Origin: Thermoflexia bacterium
GTDB lineage: Bacteria; Chloroflexota; Anaerolineae; B4-G1
Assembly: GCA_011192155.1 (NCBI GenBank)
Contig: DUEK01000004.1
Span: forward strand, 1 to 64,000
Direction: 5' to 3'
DNA length: 64,000 nucleotides
Position numbers and translations under genes: made by a program. A model generated the notes under the pieces. It ran no database searches, had not been told where the DNA came from, and worked only from the letters and a program-made list of their open reading frames with translations. Below are positions 29,085-62,188 of this stretch, one piece after another. The number at the start of each line of letters is the position of its first letter. Position 1 is the stretch's first letter.

Positions 29085-29879
29085 CTACTTGAGGTACTCC
29101 AGCGCCGCGTCCACACTCGCATCCTCGTGGATAATGGCCGCGATAGCGGCCGTCATCTTGTCCGGCTCGGGATAGCGCCAGATGTTCCGACCGACCGCGA
29201 CGCCGCTGGCGCCGGCCTGCATCGACTCGTGAATCGAGTTCAGCAGATCGCGGGGGGCCTTGGACCTGCCGCCGCCCAACACGACGAGGGGCACGTACAC
29301 CTGTTCACAGATAGCGCGGAAACTCTCCACGTCGCCGCTGTAGGTGGTCTTGATGAAATCCACACCAAGTTCAGCGCCGATGCGGCAGGCGTGGCCGATA
29401 TTCTCCGGCGTCCACATTTCGGTCGGGTTCTCGAACCCACCGGGCAGCATCTCGGCCATCACGGGTACGTTCCACTCGGCGCATTGAGAGATCAAATCAG
29501 ATAGGTATGGCAGCGTCACCGACTCGTACACTGAGCCTGGCATACCCATACAACAGACAGCGTCGGCTCCAACCCGTAGCGCATCGTAGACGTCGTATAT
29601 CAACTGCATCGGCCCGCGCTCCTGGGCCAACAACGAACCGCCGCCATCGACGCGCAGGAGGATGCCCATAGCGCCGATCTCTTTGGCAAACCGCGTGACG
29701 ACGCCATAGGTCGTCAGCATACCGTCCGCGCCGCCGGCTCGAATCTTGCGGATGACCTGGCCCGGTCTCTCCAACCCTTCCATCATACCAAACACAGCCG
29801 GATGGTCCATCGCGACGATCAGCGTCTTGCCGTCCTCGCGAAAGATGTGGTTCCAACGATGGGTTTTGAGTCCGATCAT
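29085..29879 (-). CDS. class I (DhnA/archaeal-type) aldolase family protein
   Basis: 264 aa with Schiff-base lysine context DFIKTTYSG and (beta/alpha)8 pattern. Confidence 0.7.
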   Translation of the reverse strand: MIGLKTHRWNHIFREDGKTLIVAMDHPAVFGMMEGLERPGQVIRKIRAGGADGMLTTYGVVTRFAKEIGAMGILLRVDGGGSLLAQERGPMQLIYDVYDALRVGADAVCCMGMPGSVYESVTLPYLSDLISQCAEWNVPVMAEMLPGGFENPTEMWTPENIGHACRIGAELGVDFIKTTYSGDVESFRAICEQVYVPLVVLGGGRSKAPRDLLNSIHESMQAGASGVAVGRNIWRYPEPDKMTAAIAAIIHEDASVDAALEYLK

Positions 29880-29914: not shown

Positions 29915-29950
29915 GTGAAACGTGAAACTTGATCGCGTTTCACGTTTCAC
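29915..29950. repeat. perfect palindrome GTGAAACGTGAAAC-N8-GTTTCACGTTTCAC (family C)
   Basis: 14-bp arms, between PTS gene stop and aldolase start. Built from the same GTGAAACG/GTCAAACG heptamer-like units found at 55611..55698 and 56204..56237. Confidence 0.55.
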
Positions 29951-29969: not shown

Positions 29970-31751
29970 CTAGAAGAGCCCGATCTCGATGGCCTCGCCT
30001 GTTTCCATATTGAGGCCAGGCCAAATGGGATAGGAACCCAACACACCAACCAGGATAATGATGATCATAATCGTCGTCGGCGACACGTTCTTTTTGGCGA
30101 CCAGCCACCAGATGAGCAGTACCAACAGCAACGGCAGCAGATTGGGCATAAAGCTATCTATGATCGACTGAATCTGGAACGGAGTACCGCCAATCATAAA
30201 GGCCACCGAAGTCGAGAGACTAACGAACTGTACGACCAGCGCGCCCATGATAAAATTGCCCAGCACGCCCGCGCCGGTAATGACGCGGTTCAGCGTGCCG
30301 CTCCTCAGGATATTGGTGACAGCTGCGCGTCCCTGCTTGTACCCCTGCCACCAGATGAACCAACCGCCGCCCCAGATACCGGCCGCCATCAAAACGATAA
30401 AGACGATGGGACCGAGAATGCTGCCGCTGGTCGCCTGGGCGATATTCCCGCCCAGCGCGATGCTCATACCGATGGAGAGCGCGATGGGGATCAGGATACC
30501 CTGCTGAAGTGTGTCGCCGATACCCGCCATCGGCCCCATCAGACCGGTCTTTACTGCGTTGATGGCGTCATCGCTGATGTCGGCTCCGGCCGCGCGCTCC
30601 TCTTCCATCGCAATGACAATACCGTGAATCACACCACCCGCGTCCGGCTGCGTGTTGAAGAAAACCATGTGGCGCTTGAGCGCGGCGCTGATATCTTCCT
30701 TGCTCTTGTACAATTTCTTGATGATGGGCGTCATACTGTGCATAAATCCCATGCCCTGCATACGCTCCCAGTTGTAGGTCGAGTGGGAGAAGAATAGCCA
30801 GCGCACAAAGGCCCGGAAGACGTCATTTTGCGTGAGCAGGCCGGGCGCTTTACGTTCCTCGGCGCCCTCGATCACTCCTTCGCTGCCAAACCCTTCAGTG
30901 AACAGCACGTGGACGTATGCCATGCAGGCGCCGATAATGGCCATCACCAGTAGATTGGCGCTCCCACTCATCATTGAGGTGACGAGAAAGCCCACGAAAA
31001 AGTAGGGCCAGACGTTGCCCTGGAACAGGAATTTGAGGTTGAGCGCGATACCCAAAGCCGCGAGCATGCCGCTGGCAGCATATAGCCCGCTCATCACCCA
31101 GATAGCGTTCGCGTCAATCCATTCCAGCGCTTCGGCGACTGCGGTGGAACCCAGATAAGCGGCAATCATCACTGGCACTGCATAGATCAGGAACAGGAAA
31201 GGCTGGGAGTAGATATAGTTACTGCGTGCCGCTTTCTCAATATTCCCTTCCTCAGCAAACTTGTCCGCCCAGTGGGGGATGATGGAGCACGTAGACATAC
31301 GCAGCGACCAAGCCAGGCTACCCAGCAATCCCAGCGGCGCAGCCACTGCCAACGCTGCGTCTGCGCCCAAACCGCCGCCCAGCGCCAGTGCCGTGCCCAG
31401 GTAACCTGCCAGTCCAGGGTCACCGGGCAGCGAGCCGCCCGCCGAGATCCATCCCAGGTAGAGCACGTTGATGTTGGCGCCAATGGCGACCCCTTCACCG
31501 GGCCGTCCCATCACGATGCCGACCAGCGCGCCGGCGACCAACGGGCGGTAGAGCGCAGTAAAACCGAGGTTGGCGAACCAGGGCGACATGGAAAAGTAGT
31601 ACAGAATGCCGATGATGAGGGCCATCACGAGATTCATGCGCATCGGCTCCTCTTGCGTCACTGGCGCAGCCTCGACCACGACGACGCTCGCCGCCATCAA
31701 CAACATACTAACAGCCATAGCTATGCCGATTTGCTTCTTATTCACTTTCAT
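29970..31751 (-). CDS. PTS mannose/fructose/sorbose-family permease, fused IIC-IID
   Basis: 593 aa. N-terminal half resembles EIIC(Man). C-terminal half contains the EIID hallmark VFFNTQP. RBS AAGGAGAAG. No EIIA/EIIB/HPr/EI in window. Confidence 0.6.
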   Translation of the reverse strand: MKVNKKQIGIAMAVSMLLMAASVVVVEAAPVTQEEPMRMNLVMALIIGILYYFSMSPWFANLGFTALYRPLVAGALVGIVMGRPGEGVAIGANINVLYLGWISAGGSLPGDPGLAGYLGTALALGGGLGADAALAVAAPLGLLGSLAWSLRMSTCSIIPHWADKFAEEGNIEKAARSNYIYSQPFLFLIYAVPVMIAAYLGSTAVAEALEWIDANAIWVMSGLYAASGMLAALGIALNLKFLFQGNVWPYFFVGFLVTSMMSGSANLLVMAIIGACMAYVHVLFTEGFGSEGVIEGAEERKAPGLLTQNDVFRAFVRWLFFSHSTYNWERMQGMGFMHSMTPIIKKLYKSKEDISAALKRHMVFFNTQPDAGGVIHGIVIAMEEERAAGADISDDAINAVKTGLMGPMAGIGDTLQQGILIPIALSIGMSIALGGNIAQATSGSILGPIVFIVLMAAGIWGGGWFIWWQGYKQGRAAVTNILRSGTLNRVITGAGVLGNFIMGALVVQFVSLSTSVAFMIGGTPFQIQSIIDSFMPNLLPLLLVLLIWWLVAKKNVSPTTIMIIIILVGVLGSYPIWPGLNMETGEAIEIGLF

Positions 31752-46858: not shown

Positions 46859-47506
46859 TCAAATTTGTTTGATTTGAGAATCTAGCATCGCGTTGCGCGC
46901 GCGGCGCACTGCGCCTATCCATAGGCCGTTCAACGTCAACGTCATTGCCAGCCCACACAGACCCAGGAAGGCCAAGGGGACGGCGACGGTTTCCATCAAG
47001 ACCAGCAGCGCGCGCCCCACTGATCCCAGGAAAGCGAGCAACTGCACGATGGTCGTCGGGCCGCCGCTGACGAGGGCCGGCAGGATGCCGGCTATATTCG
47101 AAAAATCCGCAAAAATGGGGGCCGGCAGGATGCCGGCTATATTCGAAAAATCCGCAAAAATGGGGGCCGGCAGGATGCCAGTCGCGTCCAAAAAGCCCAC
47201 AAAGATGGGAGCCAGCGCCAGCAGCGCCAGCGACACCGTCCCCAGGGTCAGCGTCGCGCCGCCGACGACCGCGCGACGGGCCTGATCTCGGCGAGCCAGG
47301 CGCGTCATCACCTGTACGCGCACGCGGAGCGGGGGTTGCACCATCGGCGCGGCGGAGAACAGGGTATCAAGTGCCTGCAGGCTCTGCCACCCGGCCTGAC
47401 ACGCGCCGCACGCGGTCAGGTGTTCGTCCAGGAGCGCGCTATCTGCGTCATTGAGACGACCATCCAGCCGCTCGGACATCATTTGACCAGCCTGTTTACA
47501 TCGCAT
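46859..47506 (-). CDS. anti-sigma factor, zf-HC2 type, single-pass membrane, with internal tandem 15-aa repeat
   Basis: HLTACGACQ zinc motif, TM segment. GILPAPIFADFSNIA repeated (45-bp DNA tandem repeat 47077..47181). Overlaps the ECF sigma gene by 11 bp. Confidence 0.7.
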   Translation of the reverse strand: MRCKQAGQMMSERLDGRLNDADSALLDEHLTACGACQAGWQSLQALDTLFSAAPMVQPPLRVRVQVMTRLARRDQARRAVVGGATLTLGTVSLALLALAPIFVGFLDATGILPAPIFADFSNIAGILPAPIFADFSNIAGILPALVSGGPTTIVQLLAFLGSVGRALLVLMETVAVPLAFLGLCGLAMTLTLNGLWIGAVRRARNAMLDSQIKQI

Positions 47507-53847: not shown

Positions 53848-55614
53848 ATGACCCTAAACCTGGATGCAATCGGCAAGAAAATCGGTCCCATCACTACCGA
53901 GTACAATTGGAAGGACATCGTCCTCTACGCGCTGGGCGTGGGGGCCGGCTTTGACGAGTTGGAATACGTCTACGAAGACCGGCTAAAGGCGATCCCGTCT
54001 TTTGCCGCCACCGCCCTTTACGATTTTCTGGGTGAGTTTGTGGCTATCACGGGCGTCAACCTGGCAGGCATCCTTCATGGGGAGCACGATCTGATTTTCC
54101 ACAATCCCATTCCCCCAGAGGGCGGTGCGCTCACCAGTGAGGCGCGTATCACCAATATCTACGACAAGGGCGAGGGCAAGGGCGCGCTGGTGATCGGCCA
54201 GGTGAATACTTACCACGAGGATGGGCAAAAGCTGTTCACCAACGTCGCCACCCTGTTTTCCCGGCTGGATGGCGGCTTTGGCGGCGAGAACGCGCCCCGG
54301 ACGACGTTCGAGTTCCCAGACCGGGAACCGGATTTCGAGGAACTAGCGCAGCCCTCAGCCGACCAGCCTCTGACCTACCGGCTTTCGGGCGACACCTTTG
54401 CTTTGCACGTTGACCCCGACTTTGCTCAGATGAGCGGCTTTGAGCGACCCATCATGCATGGCCTGTGTACCCACGGCTACGCCTGCCGCGCCGTCATCAA
54501 ACATCTGTTCCCCGGTGAGCCGGAGCGGATGACGCACTTTCGCAATCGCTTTTCCAAGGCGCTCTATCCGGGTACGCCGATCAAGACCCAGATATGGCAA
54601 GTCGAGGAAGGAAAAGCTCTTTTCAGAACCATCAACGTCGAGACGGGCAAGGCGGTACTCGATCGGGGCGTGGTCGAGTGGATGAGCCGGGGGGAGGCGG
54701 AGAAGCGAGGTAAGGGCGGCATTCGATTTGACAGCCAGGTAGCCATCGTCACCGGCGCTGGCGGCGGCCTGGGCCGCGTCTATGCGCTGGAATTGGCGAA
54801 ACGGGGCGCCAAGGTAGTGGTCAACGACCTGGGCGGCGCGCGCGATGGCACGGGTAAAGGCTCCGCCCGCCCCGCCGACGCGGTTGTGCAGGAGATTCAG
54901 GAGGCTGGCGGCGAGGCGGTCGCTAACTATGACTCGGTCGCCACGCGGGAGGGGGGCGAGGCAATCGTCCAGACCGCGCTGGATAGCTTTGGCAAGGTGG
55001 ACATCCTCATCAACAACGCCGGCATCCTGCGCGATAAATCCTTCGCCAAGATGACGCCGGAGCAATGGGACGGTGTGCTGGCGGTACATCTGCAAGGGGC
55101 CTACAACGTCACCGCTCCGGCTTTCCGCGCCATGCGGGAGAACGGCTATGGGCGCGTGGTGATGACCACCTCGGCGGCGGGGCTGTTCGGCAACTTTGGG
55201 CAGGCCAATTACAGCGCGGCCAAGATGGGACTGGTGGGAATGATGAACACACTCAAGCTGGAGGGAGCCAAGCACAACATCAAAGTCAACACCATCGCGC
55301 CCCTGGCCGCTACCCGGCTGACGGAGGACGTCATGCCGCCCGATATGCTGAAAAAGCTCAAGCCGGAAATGGTCGCGCCGCTGGCGCTCTATCTCTGCGC
55401 GGAGCAGTGCGCCGAGAGCGGTCTGGTCGTGAACGCCGGCGGCGGGTTCTTTAGCCGAGCGGCGGTGGCCTCTGCGCCCGTCGTGCAGGTTGGTGACGGG
55501 CAGCAAGCGCCCACGGTGGAAGAGATTCACCGTCACTGGGCCGAAATTGACAGCCTGGAAAGCAGCCGGCAGTATCAAGATGCCAATGCAATGTTGATGG
55601 ATATGCTGGCGTGA
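53848..55614 (+). CDS. bifunctional MaoC-like (R)-hydratase (double hot-dog) :: SDR 3-hydroxyacyl-CoA dehydrogenase fusion
   Basis: N-terminal hot-dog pair, C-terminal SDR (VAIVTGAGGGLGRVYAL, NNAG, YSAAKMGL). Start at MTLNLD with RBS AAGGAGGAAACACC. Domain order is the reverse of eukaryotic MFE-2. Confidence 0.8.
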   Translation: MTLNLDAIGKKIGPITTEYNWKDIVLYALGVGAGFDELEYVYEDRLKAIPSFAATALYDFLGEFVAITGVNLAGILHGEHDLIFHNPIPPEGGALTSEARITNIYDKGEGKGALVIGQVNTYHEDGQKLFTNVATLFSRLDGGFGGENAPRTTFEFPDREPDFEELAQPSADQPLTYRLSGDTFALHVDPDFAQMSGFERPIMHGLCTHGYACRAVIKHLFPGEPERMTHFRNRFSKALYPGTPIKTQIWQVEEGKALFRTINVETGKAVLDRGVVEWMSRGEAEKRGKGGIRFDSQVAIVTGAGGGLGRVYALELAKRGAKVVVNDLGGARDGTGKGSARPADAVVQEIQEAGGEAVANYDSVATREGGEAIVQTALDSFGKVDILINNAGILRDKSFAKMTPEQWDGVLAVHLQGAYNVTAPAFRAMRENGYGRVVMTTSAAGLFGNFGQANYSAAKMGLVGMMNTLKLEGAKHNIKVNTIAPLAATRLTEDVMPPDMLKKLKPEMVAPLALYLCAEQCAESGLVVNAGGGFFSRAAVASAPVVQVGDGQQAPTVEEIHRHWAEIDSLESSRQYQDANAMLMDMLA

Positions 55615-55698
55615 AACATCAAACGTCAAGCGTCAAACGTGAAACGTGAAACGTCAAACGTCAAGCGTCAAACGTGAAACGTCAAATGGGAAACGTGA
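55611..55698. repeat. tandem array of GTCAAACG/GTGAAACG heptamer-based units (about 2 x 30 bp)
   Basis: Sequence gtgaaacatcaaacgtcaagcgtcaaacgtgaaacgtgaaacgtcaaacgtcaagcgtcaaacgtgaaacgtcaaatgg. Starts at the stop codon of the MaoC-SDR gene. Confidence 0.6.
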
Positions 55699-55709
55699 GA
55701 GAGGAAACG

Positions 55710-56213
55710 ATGAACTATGAGGAGTGGGTCGCAACGGTGCCGGAGGAGATCAAAGCTGATTCCCTCTGGAAGATGACCGCCTACCGGTTGGCGTTGTTTC
55801 TGGGTGATCTGGGGTGGTATGATACGGCAAAGTTAGTGCGAAACCGGCACTTGACTGGCCTGTCTGACCAGTTGTACAGAGCTTTAGGATCCGTCAGCGC
55901 CAATCTGGCCGAGGGATACTCACGAGGCTCCGGCAAAGATCGCGCCCGTTTCTACGAATACTCTCTCGGTTCTGCCAGAGAAAGCCGGGACTGGTACTTT
56001 AAAGCCCGGCACGTTCTTGGTGAAGTCGTTTTCCAACACCGCCTACAGTTGCTCACTCGGGTGATCCAACTCCTTCTAACTACGATCCCCCAACAGCGCG
56101 GTCGTGCGCTGCGGGAACGACCAGGGACCTATCAAGTAGCCTATGACGAAGCGAACGAGGCGTTGGAATCCCTGCTCCAACACGTCCCCCTTCCCGATTC
56201 GGATGACGAATGA
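55710..56213 (+). CDS. four-helix-bundle protein (TIGR02436; 23S rRNA intervening-sequence-protein-like)
   Basis: 168 aa. Diagnostic LGSVSANLAEGYSRGSGKDRARFYEYSLGSARESRDW segment. RBS GAGAGGAAACG. Confidence 0.75.
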   Translation: MNYEEWVATVPEEIKADSLWKMTAYRLALFLGDLGWYDTAKLVRNRHLTGLSDQLYRALGSVSANLAEGYSRGSGKDRARFYEYSLGSARESRDWYFKARHVLGEVVFQHRLQLLTRVIQLLLTTIPQQRGRALRERPGTYQVAYDEANEALESLLQHVPLPDSDDE

Positions 56214-56237
56214 CGTTTGACGAATGACGTTTGACGG
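56204..56237. repeat. inverted-orientation GTCAAACGTC repeat pair (GAATGACGTTTGAC x2)
   Basis: Immediately after the four-helix-bundle stop. Reverse complement of the CGTCAAACGTC units in the 55611..55698 array, so the gene is bracketed by inverted repeats. Confidence 0.55.
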
Positions 56238-56272
56238 GCCAGAAGGCAGATTAGAGTCAAGGAGGAACTATT

Positions 56273-57481
56273 ATGGCTACAGGAATTCGAGATAAAGTCG
56301 CCATCATCGGGATGGGCTGCACAAAATTCGGCGAGCGGTGGGACGTTGGCTCTGAGGAATTGATGGTCGAGGCGTTCGAGGAGGCGATAGTGGACGCCGG
56401 CATTGAGCGGAACGAGATCCAGGCCGCCTGGCTGGGCACTTGCTTTGAGGAGGCCAGCGTTGGCAAGAGCGCGCTGCCGCTCTCGCTGACCTTGCGCTTG
56501 CCCAGGATACCGGTAACGCGCGTCGAGAACTTTTGCGCCACCGGGACGGAGGCCTTTCGCGGGGCCTGCTACGCCGTCGCCTCCGGCGCTTATGATATCG
56601 CCCTGGCGTTGGGCGTGGAAAAGCTCAAGGATATTGGCTACGGGGGTCTGCCCAACTGGGGCTCTGGCGCCGGCGCGTTGACGTGGCAGTTCATGCCCAA
56701 CGTGACCGCGCCGGGGGCCTTTGCTCAGTTGGCGACCGCCTACGCCGCCAAGCACGATATTTCCATCAACGACCTGAAGCAGGCGATGGCCCACGTTTCT
56801 GCCAAAAGCCACGCCAACGCCGCGCTCAACCCCAAGGCCCACCTGCGCAAGCCGGTCTCTGTTGACCAAGTGATGGCCGCCCCCACCATCGCCTACCCCT
56901 TGGGGCTGTTCGATTGCTGCGGCGTCAGCGACGGCGCCGCCTGCGCCATCGTCGCCACGCCGGAAATCGCCGAGAGGCTGGGCAAACAGAACCTGGTCAG
57001 CGTCAAGGCGCTCCAACTGGCGCTCTCCAGCGGCGAGGAGATGGGGTACAATAACTGGGACGGTGATCACTTTATCACCACTTCCACATGTAGCACCAAG
57101 GCCTACGAGGAAGCGGGCATCACCAATCCGCGCGAAGAGATCAGCATGATGGAGGTACACGATTGTTTCTCCATCACCGAGCTGGTGACGATGGAAGACC
57201 TGCACATCTCCGAGCGCGGTCAGGCGCCCCAAGACGTTCTGGATGGATTCTACGATCTGGACGGCCAGATCCCGTGTCAGCCCGACGGTGGGCTAAAGTG
57301 CTTTGGACATCCCATCGGCGCATCGGGGCTGCGGATGTTGTACGAGATGTATCTCCAGTTCCAGGGGCGGGCGGGCGAGCGGCAACTGGACAATCTACGC
57401 TATGGACTGACGCACAACCTGGGCGGCATGCCGTACATGAACGTGAGCGCTATCGCGATTGTGGGGCGGTACGGGGAATGA
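56273..57481 (+). CDS. SCP-x/nsLTP-type thiolase-fold protein
   Basis: Active-site Cys context (VENFCATG), C-terminal GHPIGASG. RBS AAGGAGGAAC. Confidence 0.8.
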   Translation: MATGIRDKVAIIGMGCTKFGERWDVGSEELMVEAFEEAIVDAGIERNEIQAAWLGTCFEEASVGKSALPLSLTLRLPRIPVTRVENFCATGTEAFRGACYAVASGAYDIALALGVEKLKDIGYGGLPNWGSGAGALTWQFMPNVTAPGAFAQLATAYAAKHDISINDLKQAMAHVSAKSHANAALNPKAHLRKPVSVDQVMAAPTIAYPLGLFDCCGVSDGAACAIVATPEIAERLGKQNLVSVKALQLALSSGEEMGYNNWDGDHFITTSTCSTKAYEEAGITNPREEISMMEVHDCFSITELVTMEDLHISERGQAPQDVLDGFYDLDGQIPCQPDGGLKCFGHPIGASGLRMLYEMYLQFQGRAGERQLDNLRYGLTHNLGGMPYMNVSAIAIVGRYGE

Positions 57482-57819
57482 AACGTAAAGGTGTGAAGCG
57501 TGAGTACGTTCACCGGGAGTTGAATCAGGAGGTTACCGCCATCGGTGGACGGTACGCGCTGGTGAAGGAGGCGCGTTTGCCCTTCCGGGGACGGGAGGTG
57601 CTGTACCTGGTTGGTTATGGCGTTTTCGATACGGCCTGTTGCGGCGTCGGCGGGTGCGCGTATGCGCGGGTGACGGGCTTTGTCCAAGAGTGGAAGTGCG
57701 AGACAAACGAGGACGGTCTTGCAGTGTCTTTCGTGGAGCCAATCCGCGACGAGATCATCCAGAAGGAGGTGCGACAGCTGATAAAAGAGCGAGAGACAGT
57801 TCAGCAGATCGAATTCTAG
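57478..57819 (+). CDS. small Cys-containing protein translationally coupled to the thiolase (possible DUF35-like partner)
   Basis: 113 aa, ATGA overlap with the thiolase stop. CCx4C...C cluster (DTACCGVGGCAYARVTGFVQEWKCE). Confidence 0.4.
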   Translation: MKRKGVKREYVHRELNQEVTAIGGRYALVKEARLPFRGREVLYLVGYGVFDTACCGVGGCAYARVTGFVQEWKCETNEDGLAVSFVEPIRDEIIQKEVRQLIKERETVQQIEF

Positions 57820-61611: not shown

Positions 61612-61629
61612 GAAAATGGAGAATGGCGA

Positions 61630-62154
61630 ATGAGCGAAACAAAAGGGTACGTACAAGTCTATACCGGCGATGGCAAGGGCAAGACGACAGCCGCGCTAGG
61701 ATTGGCATTGCGCGCATCGGGCCACGGAATGCGCACCTACATCGGCCAGTTTATGAAAGGGCAGCCCTACGGGGAATTGGACGCGCTGCGCGACAATTCT
61801 CACATCACTATTGAGCAGTACGGTGACGTGCGCTGCATCCATCGCGAAGAGGTCACTTCCGACCACATAGCCCAGGCTCAGCGCGGGCTGGCGCGGGCGC
61901 GGGAGGCGCTGCTTTCAGGCGAGTACGACATCGTCGTGCTAGACGAGGTCAATGTAACCATCTGGTTTGGGCTGCTGAGTGTGGAGGAGGTGCTGGCGTT
62001 TCTGAACAAAAAACCAGAGCGCGTGGAGGTGATTCTCACCGGCCGCCGCGCGCCGCATGAATTGATTGAGCGAGCCGACCTGGTGACAGAGATGCTGCCG
62101 GTCAAGCACTATTACGAGCAGGGAGTATTAGCGCGAAAGGGGATTGAGCGATAG
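61630..62154 (+). CDS. cobO: ATP:cob(I)alamin adenosyltransferase (CobO/BtuR family)
   Basis: P-loop-like GDGKGKTTAALG, typical 174-aa length. Confidence 0.85.
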   Translation: MSETKGYVQVYTGDGKGKTTAALGLALRASGHGMRTYIGQFMKGQPYGELDALRDNSHITIEQYGDVRCIHREEVTSDHIAQAQRGLARAREALLSGEYDIVVLDEVNVTIWFGLLSVEEVLAFLNKKPERVEVILTGRRAPHELIERADLVTEMLPVKHYYEQGVLARKGIER

Positions 62155-62188
62155 GGAACATGAAACGTAATGTGTGCTCAGAGGTTAT

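Follow-up and report, generated by a model that had tools for sequence, protein, structure and literature searches.

Organization of the 4HB locus

The stretch of DNA analysed here (the window, 64,000 nt) contains a gene for a four-helix-bundle (4HB) protein between two co-oriented genes of a beta-oxidation operon, all on the + strand. The upstream gene (53848..55614) encodes an MFE-2-type (MaoC) hydratase apparently fused to an SDR domain, as judged by Pfam and by comparison with relatives, and the downstream gene (56273..57481) encodes an SCP-x-type thiolase (Pfam). The 4HB gene itself (55710..56213; 167 aa) was assigned to PF05635 and TIGR02436 by Pfam and NCBIfam. The first-pass annotation, made from the sequence alone, had placed the end of the hydratase::SDR gene at 55614, the start of the thiolase gene at 56273 and the intervening ORF at 55710-56213; these coordinates were borne out.

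Upstream of the 4HB gene lies an array of ~12 heptamers (F array; 55610..55698, + strand), detected by TRF with period 7 at 55610-55686/98 (11 copies, score 105-122) and also with periods 14 and 28. Its units 1-6 read GAAACAT, CAAACGT, CAAGCGT, CAAACGT, GAAACGT and GAAACGT, and units 7-12 read CAAACGT, CAAGCGT, CAAACGT, GAAACGT, CAAATGG and GAAACGT. The downstream array (R array; 56204..56237, + strand; TRF and pairing) consists of GACGAAT, GACGTTT, GACGAAT, GACGTTT and GACGG, and was detected by TRF with period 14 at 56204-56236 (2.4 copies, 100% matches). GTCAAAC of the upstream array is the reverse complement of GTTTGAC of the downstream array. When up to two mismatches were allowed, SAAACGTSAAACGT had 21 matches in the window relative to 1.1 expected, and 0 of 100 shuffles reached 21. 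The presence of TRF arrays with reverse-complementary units on both sides agrees with the earlier description of the 4HB gene as a discrete unit between inverted heptamer arrays.

This cassette fits the spacer without a gap, running from the upstream host gene's stop codon to the ribosome-binding site of the downstream one. The F array starts at the TGA stop codon of the hydratase::SDR gene, the R array overlaps the final three codons and the stop codon of the 4HB gene, and the thiolase gene has its own Shine-Dalgarno (SD) sequence (AAGGAGG) 3' of the R array. An SD-like sequence, GAGAGAGGA (55696..55704, + strand), is located 6 nt 5' of the 4HB ATG, just within the loop of the predicted stem. 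No promoter-like or terminator-like site for the 4HB gene was found in the spacers. With Rfam, 55400-56400 had no match at E <= 1, and no family, rRNA included, reached the gathering threshold anywhere in the window.

Properties of the 4HB protein

The 4HB protein scored 53 bits against PF05635 (cut-off 33.8) and 59.7 bits against TIGR02436 (cut-off 24). Both scores are above the curated cut-offs, which supports its earlier assignment to the protein family of 23S rRNA intervening sequences (IVSs). The AF2 monomer model (pLDDT 84, pTM 0.78) has four long helices, and its best Foldseek matches were 2gsc and 2rld (target TM 0.78-0.89, rmsd 1.8-3.0); the fold is a four-helix bundle like those of XCC0516 (2GSC) and BT_0352 (2RLD). 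Members of the window subfamily are longer than usual (167 aa versus about 118) owing to extra N- and C-terminal segments. No catalytic motif was recognisable in the protein, and it gave no match to the Avd equivalog model NF033474. The dN/dS of the gene was 0.08-0.15, and the protein is under strong purifying selection.

Predicted RNA stem around the 4HB gene

MFE and centroid folds of 55600-56250 both paired 55652-55684 (5' stem arm, + strand) with 56204-56236, giving a predicted stem of 28 Watson-Crick pairs that encloses the 4HB ORF. On average, an R base was paired with an F base at a probability of 0.81. The stem contains internal A.A mismatches and draws on just the ~5 F-array units nearest the gene, leaving ~6 more upstream units spare.

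Pairing was then compared across 78 related 4HB loci from many phyla. The duplex energy was -66.8 for cognate arrays, -53.2 for non-cognate arrays and -42.2 for shuffled arrays (p = 2e-8). Whole-transcript MFE folds in the same survey contained 41.8 long-range pairs, versus 30.2 and 22.6 in the respective controls; the baseline of these controls is high, as RNA ends generally tend to pair and even shuffled flanks yield 22.6 pairs. Antisense pairing was slightly stronger than sense pairing (-71.3 versus -66.8; G:U 672 versus 506), and the G:U versus A:C asymmetry was opposite to that predicted for a sense-RNA stem; array register confounds this result, and we read the test for selection on the sense-strand RNA as negative or ambiguous. 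Complementarity of the arms would suit a role at the DNA level equally well.

Heptamer arrays flank 4HB genes family-wide

Period-7 arrays were detected upstream of the gene in 66 of the 78 loci and downstream in 64. Best-window period-7 self-match was 0.72 upstream and 0.73 downstream, versus 0.33-0.46 for other periods and for the gene interior. The unit varies by locus, and each locus has a downstream array complementary to the upstream one: cognate arrays had 12.0 complementary 7-mers in common, compared with 4.3 for non-cognate pairs and 2.7 for the same-strand comparison. Neighbouring genes were co-oriented with the 4HB gene in 66/72 cases upstream and 65/75 downstream. The median distance from the end of the F array to the ATG is 16 nt, which leaves room for a GGAGG-type site in the relatives, and that from the stop codon to the start of the R array is 2.5 nt. 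The ORF is not always enclosed, since the whole F+R hairpin lies 5' of the gene at six loci (L024, L042, L043, L090, L093 and L096).

The same layout, built from other units, was found in Xanthomonas (GGGAATC), Bacteroidota (AATTGAC), Nostocales (CAGGAGT) and Azospirillum. In Xanthomonas, the 4HB gene XCC0516 lies between accB and accC and is bracketed by GGGAATC arrays. 4HB genes of Bacteroides and Flavivirga are bracketed in the same manner, BT_0352 of Bacteroides being located between araD and araA, and bracketing arrays are also present at 4HB loci on cyanobacterial and Azospirillum plasmids. The bracketing first noticed at a single gene therefore accompanies the gene family, in the surveyed loci and in five other lineages. 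These findings demonstrate that the heptamer-hairpin layout around the 4HB gene holds family-wide in many bacterial phyla.

4HB proteins 54-65% identical were found in many phyla, which suggests horizontal transfer. A tblastn search with the window subfamily gave no match in phages and one distant match only in plasmids, and on this basis a phage or plasmid origin was rejected. One viral contig carries a heptamer array.

Two possible properties of the arrays were considered. Stops in all three frames are present in 40/66 F arrays and 14/64 R arrays; as the purpose of the F array this does not apply to arrays made purely of GTCAAAC (L011, for example), and three-frame stops are therefore a contributing property at most. 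A purine-rich upstream arm was rejected as a universal rule (it holds for 68/78 F and 64/78 R arrays and fails in the window itself).

Heptamer repeats without the gene and cassette turnover

Heptamer repeats also occur in the window without a 4HB gene. An empty ("solo") hairpin on the minus strand, GTGAAAC x2 / 8-nt loop / GTTTCAC x2, is present at 29917..29950 (RNA fold: dG -26.3, z -3.9), between the co-oriented minus-strand genes 29970-31751 and 29085-29879. The palindrome with 14-bp arms noted in the first-pass annotation is thus real, with perfect arms, and relatives carry empty hairpins homologous to it. Degenerate traces had also been noted at 57481 and 62160. Both exist and are weak: the latter belongs to a spacer of 2-3 units (62155-62173), and the former was rejected as a repeat site, 57479-57505 probably coding for the N-terminus of the next ORF, whose start codon overlaps the preceding stop codon in an ATGA. 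A further short heptamer spacer lies at 61612-61632, in the window's own operon like that at 62155-62173.

The repeats had been proposed to be associated with this gene family. As stated, this was not supported, since repeats occur at many loci that lack the gene: in a metagenome sample, a 4HB gene adjoined 2/126 (GAAACGT)4 arrays, and in relatives empty hairpins and single arrays are common, with 60 further arrays in 471 kb. The repeats are therefore not cassette-specific ends. Arrays of many units, and mixed arrays, occur in the same contigs. The unit differs even inside one genome, the window cassette having GTCAAAC and the solo hairpin GTGAAAC; at L012, likewise, the cassette unit differs from that of the adjacent solo hairpin. 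When sampling started from the arrays, convergent pairs outnumbered divergent pairs (19 versus 4). Single hairpins with a loop >200 nt were found at L162, L168 and L151, each holding either a 4HB gene or what is left of one after deletion (in L151, a 52-aa remnant with an internal deletion), and no cargo gene other than 4HB was found in heptamer hairpins of this array-first sample. The 4HB gene inhabits a far more abundant repeat system.

Orthologous operons were then compared. The operon junction occupied in the window carries a 94%-identical cassette in L001 and an empty heptamer hairpin in L005, in which an 83%-identical cassette is present at the other junction of the operon. Cassettes at different junctions can thus be 83% identical, versus 64% at the same junction. 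The F array at one site has 12 units in the window versus 2-3 in L001, and among loci encoding an identical protein (P0070) the F array is variable and the R array constant. Cassettes turn over between junctions and decay to empty hairpins.

Possible explanations of the layout

We propose, with moderate confidence and by analogy, that the cassette is an IVS-type guest in an mRNA operon instead of 23S rRNA, with a stem predicted to be processed by RNase III. In the operon transcript, the two arrays would pair to form a ~28-bp duplex. As with the 23S rRNA IVSs in which this gene family is found, the duplex would be a substrate of RNase III, a step drawn from rRNA IVSs and one Haemophilus 5'-UTR. 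Cleavage would free the ORF-bearing loop and separate the flanking cistrons, and we propose that the host operon tolerates the guest for this reason. Because the arm units are common to many other genomic hairpins, cassettes have probably been moved or replaced via recombination between arrays. This explanation is silent on the role of the strongly conserved 4HB protein.

Such a role is supplied by a second explanation, which we hold as tentative: the 4HB protein would be a trans-acting partner of the heptamer arrays, in a system of autonomous and non-autonomous repeats like RAYT/REP. Putative binding of 4HB to array RNA or DNA would promote spread, maintenance or copy-number change of the arrays; the 4HB gene would lie between inverted arrays for the same reason as RAYT, and solo hairpins and arrays would be non-autonomous derivatives. 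The strong purifying selection on the protein is consistent with this reading, as are the great excess of arrays over 4HB genes and the long-loop hairpins that have 4HB as their only cargo (L162, L168 and L151). The flanking unit is of the type dispersed in its own lineage (GGGAATC around XCC0516 in Xanthomonas, for example), unit flavour follows cassette lineage, and the homologous protein Avd, a pentamer, binds nucleic acid and acts together with a reverse transcriptase. However, the 4HB protein has no catalytic motif and its neighbourhood no partner enzyme, and because units vary between sites of one genome (GTCAAAC versus GTGAAAC; L012), a single specific reader is not obvious.

A third explanation, that the cassette is mobile at the DNA level, seems improbable to us. 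The arrays would then serve as homology arms or terminal inverted repeats at which host enzymes, or a recombinase encoded elsewhere, carry out recombination, and pairing of the RNA would be incidental. The absence of a sense-strand G:U signature is in its favor, and so is the spread of cassettes: those at junction 1, at junction 2 and after a TPP-enzyme gene are 80-84% identical, one junction can hold a 64%-identical paralogue, and 54-65%-identical proteins cross many phyla. Transposition-remnant and mobile-element hypotheses for IVSs are also cited by the authors of the Coxiella study (PMC4990558). Compared with IS or MITE elements, however, the cassette has no linked transposase or integrase, its ends are variable-length arrays, and no target-site duplication was seen by eye at its boundaries. 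Several contexts are also conserved among deep lineages of Chloroflexota (the position 5' of accC in L067, L068, L076, L087 and L088; beta-oxidation junctions in L023, L036, L049, L066 and L083), which points to long residence, not frequent hopping. Strict co-orientation and the exact stop-to-RBS fit indicate constraints at the transcript level.

The view that the arrays are generic slippage filler of intergenic spacers and that 4HB is located there by chance is highly improbable and already strongly disfavoured: it fits the many-unit and mixed arrays frequent in the same contigs (the 60 in 471 kb) and the two short spacers in the window's own operon, but leaves unexplained the two-sided period-7 arrays (66 and 64 of 78), the cognate complementarity (12.0 versus 4.3), the recurrence in at least 6 lineages with unrelated units and the convergent pairs (19 versus 4).

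Implications

The S23p/IVS four-helix-bundle family has, to our knowledge, lacked an assigned function since the early 1990s, and tandem heptamer repeats have repeatedly been observed in excess in bacterial genomes, with no explanation offered. In the literature searched, we found no report of a general link between 4HB genes and heptamer arrays. The gene family and the repeats are connected by a rule that the window illustrates cleanly: the 4HB gene lies in the loop of a hairpin of its own lineage's heptamer arrays, in transcribed operons and rRNA alike. Both problems become approachable in tractable organisms through XCC0516 and BT_0352, for which crystal structures exist. The layout further suggests that the "association" of PF05635 with CRISPR-cas and other operons is that of a guest in intercistronic spacers, and it may represent a widespread element that shapes operon mRNA processing.

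It is possible, although we consider it doubtful, that PF05635 (Avd-like) proteins are dedicated trans-acting partners of the heptamer arrays which, with units specific to each lineage, are over-represented in many bacterial genomes (Xanthomonas GGGAATC, Chloroflexota NCGTNAN, Bacteroidota AATTGAC and cyanobacterial STRR-like units, for example), and that the cassette represents a repeat element of a class not recognised before, in its autonomous form. If so, thousands of empty hairpins and arrays would be derivatives of the gene-in-hairpin cassette, and the rRNA IVS would be a special case in which the element landed in an rRNA helix.

Comparison with known systems

RAYT is an HUH/Y1 transposase with a known DNA-cleaving mechanism, and REP is a fixed palindrome of 20-40 nt. 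Like REP/RAYT, the repeat described here is dispersed, intergenic and hairpin-forming, lies in transcribed spacers, and far outnumbers the gene that is flanked by two inverted copies. In contrast, 4HB is a four-helix bundle and not an HUH Y1 enzyme, and the window repeat is a variable-copy tandem 7-mer array. Avd, the accessory protein of diversity-generating retroelements (DGRs), binds nucleic acid as a pentamer and acts with reverse transcriptase (RT). It belongs to a homologous four-helix-bundle fold family, and its small gene also lies between repeats (VR and TR); those of the window are inverted heptamer arrays, not direct repeats of ~100 bp. A DGR/Avd reading was rejected: the neighbours are hydratase/SDR and thiolase genes, no RT, TR or VR was found beside the cassette, and the Avd model is unmatched. 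An integron cassette was also rejected, given repeats on both sides, mostly single cassettes (<=2 per operon) and housekeeping operons; no integrase was found in the loci inspected.

IVSs with an S23p/PF05635 ORF have been described in Leptospira, Coxiella burnetii, Haemophilus and Brucella (PMC4990558). In the Coxiella 23S rRNA IVS, the ORF lies in the loop of a 28-bp terminal stem that is cut by RNase III (PMC4990558), and 2-3 strain-variable heptamers (GACAGAT) are located 5' of the ORF (Warrier et al. 2016, PMC4990558). The window cassette resembles rRNA IVSs in having the same protein family in the loop, an inverted-repeat stem of ~28 bp around the ORF, tandem heptamers of variable copy number directly 5' of the ORF, and no promoter of its own, so that expression relies on the host transcript. 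It differs in that the host transcript is a protein-coding operon and not helix 9, 25 or 45 of 23S rRNA, and in that each of its two arms consists of a long heptamer array. The window ORF has a good SD and, with a dN/dS of ~0.1, is under purifying selection, whereas that of Coxiella is in decay and has no usable SD. RNase III cleavage has been demonstrated for rRNA IVSs; for the window cassette we infer it.

A transcribed heptamer array also forms one arm of a long hairpin in the 5'-UTR of H. influenzae hmw1A, where the (ATCTTTC)n hairpin is cut by RNase III and the repeat number varies in a hairpin-dependent manner (PMC12721329). Unlike the window cassette, this is a single regulatory 5'-UTR, that of an adhesin gene; its second arm is G-rich and not a complementary array, and no gene is enclosed.

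Dispersed arrays of GGGAATC and GGGGAYT are known in Xanthomonas and Nostoc (Rehm et al. 2015, PMC4692102), the former with ~186 sites and 70 convergent pairs per genome (PMC4692102), and arrays of TAACTGA in Beggiatoaceae, Cyanobacteria and Bacteroidetes (MacGregor 2015, PMC4679880). The arrays described here are likewise intergenic, lineage-specific, variable in length and often intra-operon just 5' of start codons, and, like those of Xanthomonas, often form convergent pairs. In both studies (PMC4692102, PMC4679880) the arrays were treated as G-quadruplex-forming or translational elements, with no gene connection. Our analysis goes beyond PMC4692102 in that the Xanthomonas unit brackets the 4HB gene XCC0516, and other lineages do alike with units of their own.

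Organisation of the 4HB cassette

The gene for a four-helix-bundle (4HB) protein of the S23p (23S rRNA intervening sequence, IVS) family lies on the plus strand, at an operon junction. The upstream MFE-2-type hydratase::SDR ORF ends with a TGA at 55612-55614, and from this stop codon to 55698 runs an array of ~12 SAAACGT heptamers (F array; TRF period 7, 11 copies, score 105). A ribosome-binding site (GAGAGAGGA) and the 4HB ORF follow (55710-56213; PF05635 53 bits, cut-off 33.8; TIGR02436 59.7 bits, cut-off 24). A second plus-strand array (R array; GACGAAT GACGTTT GACGAAT GACGTTT, TRF period 14, 100% matches) occupies 56204-56237 and includes the last three 4HB codons and the stop codon; the thiolase gene, also on the plus strand, begins at 56273, preceded by an AAGGAGG of its own. 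The R-array core GTTTGAC is the reverse complement of GTCAAAC in the F array. The sequence thus agrees with the layout in the first-pass annotation (array, 4HB gene, reverse-complement array, flanking genes), with a 4HB ORF of 167 aa. The window belongs to an Anaerolineaceae MAG, and a 100%-identical database protein bears that name.

The two-unit pattern occurred 21 times in the window (1.1 expected), a number reached in none of 100 shuffles. Beyond the cassette it matched the previously noted palindrome, which is present with perfect 14-bp arms at 29917-29950, and a weak trace at 62155, near the reported position 62160. No promoter-like or terminator-like sites were found in the two cassette spacers, and no Rfam family matched the window.

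The AF2 model of the protein was a four-helix bundle (pLDDT 84) whose best PDB matches were 2GSC and 2RLD. dN/dS against four relatives was 0.08-0.15, indicating that the protein is under purifying selection.

Several other features of the window were observed. The hydratase::SDR gene (53848-55614) looks chimeric: in relatives, the hydratase part matches gene 1 (MFE-2 with SCP2; 77% overall to locus L005), and the SDR part is nearer the SDR domain that gene 3 (ACP_syn_III_C-OB-SDR) carries in locus L001. Deletion between the two SDR domains would have taken out the SCP2 tail, the junction-1 cassette and the thiolase-like/OB part; assembly collapse in this MAG could also account for it. Two more intercistronic spacers in the same plus-strand gene run hold short purine-rich heptamers: 61612-61632 reads GAAAATG GAGAATG GCGAATG, its last ATG being the start of the next gene, and 62155-62173 reads GGAACAT GAAACGT AATGTGT and comes after a TAG stop. 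In this genome, spacers made of heptamers seem to be the general rule. A perfect 45-bp tandem repeat at 47074-47179 (2.4 copies, TRF score 212), in-frame within the minus-strand ORF 46859-47506 (15 codons per copy), looks like a recent in-frame duplication.

Heptamer arrays flank the 4HB gene across the family

DNA of relatives came from exact protein look-up and from scanning a single genome for each species. The scan yielded 80 loci (protein identity 54-94%) from Chloroflexota, Acidobacteriota, Verrucomicrobiota, Poribacteria, Ignavibacteria, Marinimicrobia, Desulfobacterota, Rhodothermales and others, and visual inspection showed upstream heptamers with complementary downstream units in nearly all of them. 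Flanks were complete for 78 loci. In these, a strict period-7 detector, which misses some loci because their arrays are short or degenerate, called arrays upstream of the gene at 66 and downstream of it at 64. Period-7 self-identity in the best 35-nt window was 0.72 upstream and 0.73 downstream; controls (all other periods, and sequence within the gene) gave 0.33-0.46. Flanking repeats of this type, with a unit that varies by locus, accompany other 4HB genes, and bracketing by heptamer arrays characterises the family as a whole. The median distance was 16 nt from upstream array to start codon and 2.5 nt from stop codon to downstream array. Neighbouring genes were co-oriented in 66/72 and 65/75 cases by crude ORF calls, counts that are too low because spurious antisense ORFs are among the exceptions. 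These findings show that the cassettes are co-oriented and fit exactly into intercistronic spacers.

Genes of both solved family structures were located. Xanthomonas XCC0516 (2GSC), between accB and accC, has CGGGAAT CGGGAGT GGAGAAT CGGGAAT upstream and CCCATTC CCCATTC CCGACTC CCTATTC downstream. This unit is the GGGAATC heptamer of Rehm et al., reported at ~186 sites per Xanthomonas genome, 70 as convergent pairs, with no gene linked to it (PMC4692102). For the Bacteroides BT_0352 type (2RLD), the neighbours are an araD-like aldolase gene and araA, and the flanking arrays, (AATTGAC)n and (TTGTCAA)n, differ in copy number between two metagenome contigs; a Flavivirga homologue with the same units lies between two mevalonate-pathway genes. 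Plasmid copies carried CAGGAGT/ACTCCTG (Trichormus, as in Nostoc punctiforme) and CAGAGGA/TCCTCTG (Azospirillum lipoferum). Two further plasmid cassettes stand within CRISPR-cas operons, between cas6 and cas4 in Anabaena sp. 90 (GGTGACA/TGTCACC; L236:1201-1569) and between cas10/cmr2 and cmr3 in Picosynechococcus (octamers AGGAGATA/TATCTCCT; L100:1444-1800). Such cassettes could explain the listing of '23S rRNA IVP' among CRISPR-linked domains in large surveys (PMC10910872). As an exception, one Nostoc 7120 copy, between transposase genes, has a downstream array only.

Some loci showed additional features. The GGGAATC array at L224:2444-2500 encodes the N-terminal residues of crystallised XCC0516 (..ENRESAKRPHERL..), the ORF apparently starting at a GTG within the array. 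Cassettes stand directly upstream of accC (biotin carboxylase) in two unrelated phyla (L222-L227, Xanthomonas, where the cassette separates accB from accC; L067, L068, L076, L087 and L088, Anaerolineae/Chloroflexia); the shared position may be due to chance, or such an essential, strongly expressed operon may be a favoured site. The L050 cassette follows apparent CRISPR repeats (GTGCTCAAACCCTAACAGGGATTGAAAC). Heptamer arrays also occur within apparent coding regions, for example in loops of a membrane glycosyltransferase-like ORF (L136, three arrays) and inside accC (L088, 3846-3867 and 4410-4435), on the strand where the unit has no stop codon; three units would give a 7-residue peptide repeat. 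At L054:2640-2752 and L066:4880-4940, R-type arrays that are long, rich in pyrimidines (TTCACGY, up to 16 units) and lack a partner arm span stop codon to next ATG, with no recognisable Shine-Dalgarno.

Locus-specific complementarity and a predicted stem

Units varied by locus (ACGTGAA, ACGTCAA, ACGTAAA/G, GCGTGAT, GAGTGAT, GAGTAAA, TGCGTAT), and at the surveyed loci the downstream array was always the complement of its own locus's unit, as in L092 (GAGTGAT/ATCACTC), L089 (TGCGTAT/ATACGCA), L080 (GAGTAAA/TTTACTC) and L012 (ACGTAAG/CTTACGT). Three measures separated cognate from non-cognate arms: shared complementary 7-mers (12.0 cognate, 4.3 non-cognate, 2.7 same strand), duplex energy (-66.8 cognate, -53.2 non-cognate, -42.2 shuffled; cognate versus non-cognate, p = 2e-8) and long-range pairs in the whole-transcript fold (41.8, 30.2 and 22.6 for cognate, non-cognate and shuffled arms). 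RNA ends readily pair in general, so the baselines of all three measures are high, and the values show arm-arm specificity and not stem formation in vivo. The complementarity of the arms is locus-specific.

When 55600-56250 was folded as a single transcript, the minimum-energy and centroid structures both enclosed the 4HB ORF by a predicted long-range stem of 55652-55684 with 56204-56236 (28 Watson-Crick pairs, small internal loops between). R-array bases had a mean predicted probability of 0.81 of pairing with a base of the F array; about six upstream F-array units were surplus to the stem. A test of RNA against DNA pairing gave no preference for RNA, as arms of the antisense strand would pair slightly better and with more G:U pairs. 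At some loci a complete hairpin stands upstream of the 4HB gene, not around it.

Empty hairpins and turnover

An array-first search with exact (GAAACGT)4 gave at least 120 metagenome contigs and one viral contig (729 kb listed). Only 2 of the 126 arrays listed adjoined a 4HB ORF, so the repeats are not specific to the 4HB gene, and the matches listed held only three 4HB-like ORFs. Sensitivity was not the cause of this scarcity, since the 4HB HMM finds Xanthomonas, Bacteroides and cyanobacterial proteins at E <= 1e-9. Among the matches listed, a complementary array lay within 2.5 kb downstream of 19 arrays and upstream of 4. Most of these 19 convergent pairs had loops of 5-100 nt and were empty hairpins; three single hairpins had loops over 200 nt. 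Two of these (L162, L168) hold 4HB genes, and the third (L151) a 52-aa remnant that has lost all of the 4HB protein except its N- and C-terminal ends. L107, taken as a further long-loop case, proved to be two separate empty hairpins flanking a fabF-like gene. In relatives, too, empty hairpins and single arrays were common next to cassettes, and the window's palindrome is itself an empty hairpin between two co-oriented minus-strand genes. Hairpins and arrays greatly outnumber 4HB genes, and 4HB was the only cargo found among the matches listed. These findings demonstrate that cassettes decay to empty hairpins.

The proposed comparison of orthologous operons revealed both states at the window's occupied junction: L001-L004 carry a cassette of 94% identity preceded by just 2-3 units, and L005 an empty hairpin with ACGTAAT/ATTACGT units. 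At the other junction, L005 has an 83%-identical cassette and L001 a paralogue only 64% identical to it; in L007 a cassette of 80% identity stands after a TPP-enzyme gene. Close relatives of the cassette thus occupy different sites. In eight contigs encoding one identical 4HB protein (P0070), the upstream array varied in unit number and order while ORF and downstream array were invariant; the upstream array is hypervariable. Cassettes can also be old residents, as the same contexts (upstream of accC, junctions of the beta-oxidation operon) recur across deep Chloroflexota branches. Two cassettes are probably damaged: in L073:2501-2896 the ORF stops prematurely, ~100 nt short of the R array, and in L022:767-1843 the reading frame continues for 358 codons.

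Discussion

We propose that the F and R arms would pair within the operon transcript, that RNase III may process the duplex by analogy with rRNA IVSs, and that recombination between arrays could move or replace cassettes. The main rival, compatible with this reading, is that the 4HB protein is the trans-acting partner of the arrays, in a RAYT/REP-like relationship that lacks a recognisable catalytic domain. Such a role would explain why this gene, apparently alone, lives in hairpins and why it is strongly conserved.

IVS elements with a 4HB-family ORF are already known, as are scattered reports of dispersed heptamer arrays. In a full-text search with most subscription journals outside its coverage, a paper on Coxiella (PMC4990558) was the sole match for the 4HB family with heptamer repeats, and no report was found of the family being generally embedded between complementary heptamer arrays or residing thus in mRNA operons.

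Processing of a transcribed heptamer array has a precedent in the Haemophilus influenzae hmw1A 5'-UTR, where RNase III cuts a hairpin that has an (ATCTTTC)n array as one of its arms; change in repeat number requires both hairpin and RNase III (PMC12721329). The 23S rRNA IVS of Coxiella burnetii is a 428-nt element whose loop holds an S23p ORF of the 4HB family, reported to be decaying; two or three GACAGAT heptamers, variable among strains, immediately precede the ORF, and RNase III cuts the 28-bp terminal stem (PMC4990558). Its anatomy is the same as that of the window cassette; in contrast, the window cassette lies in a messenger-RNA operon, its ribosome-binding site is good, and purifying selection acts on its ORF.
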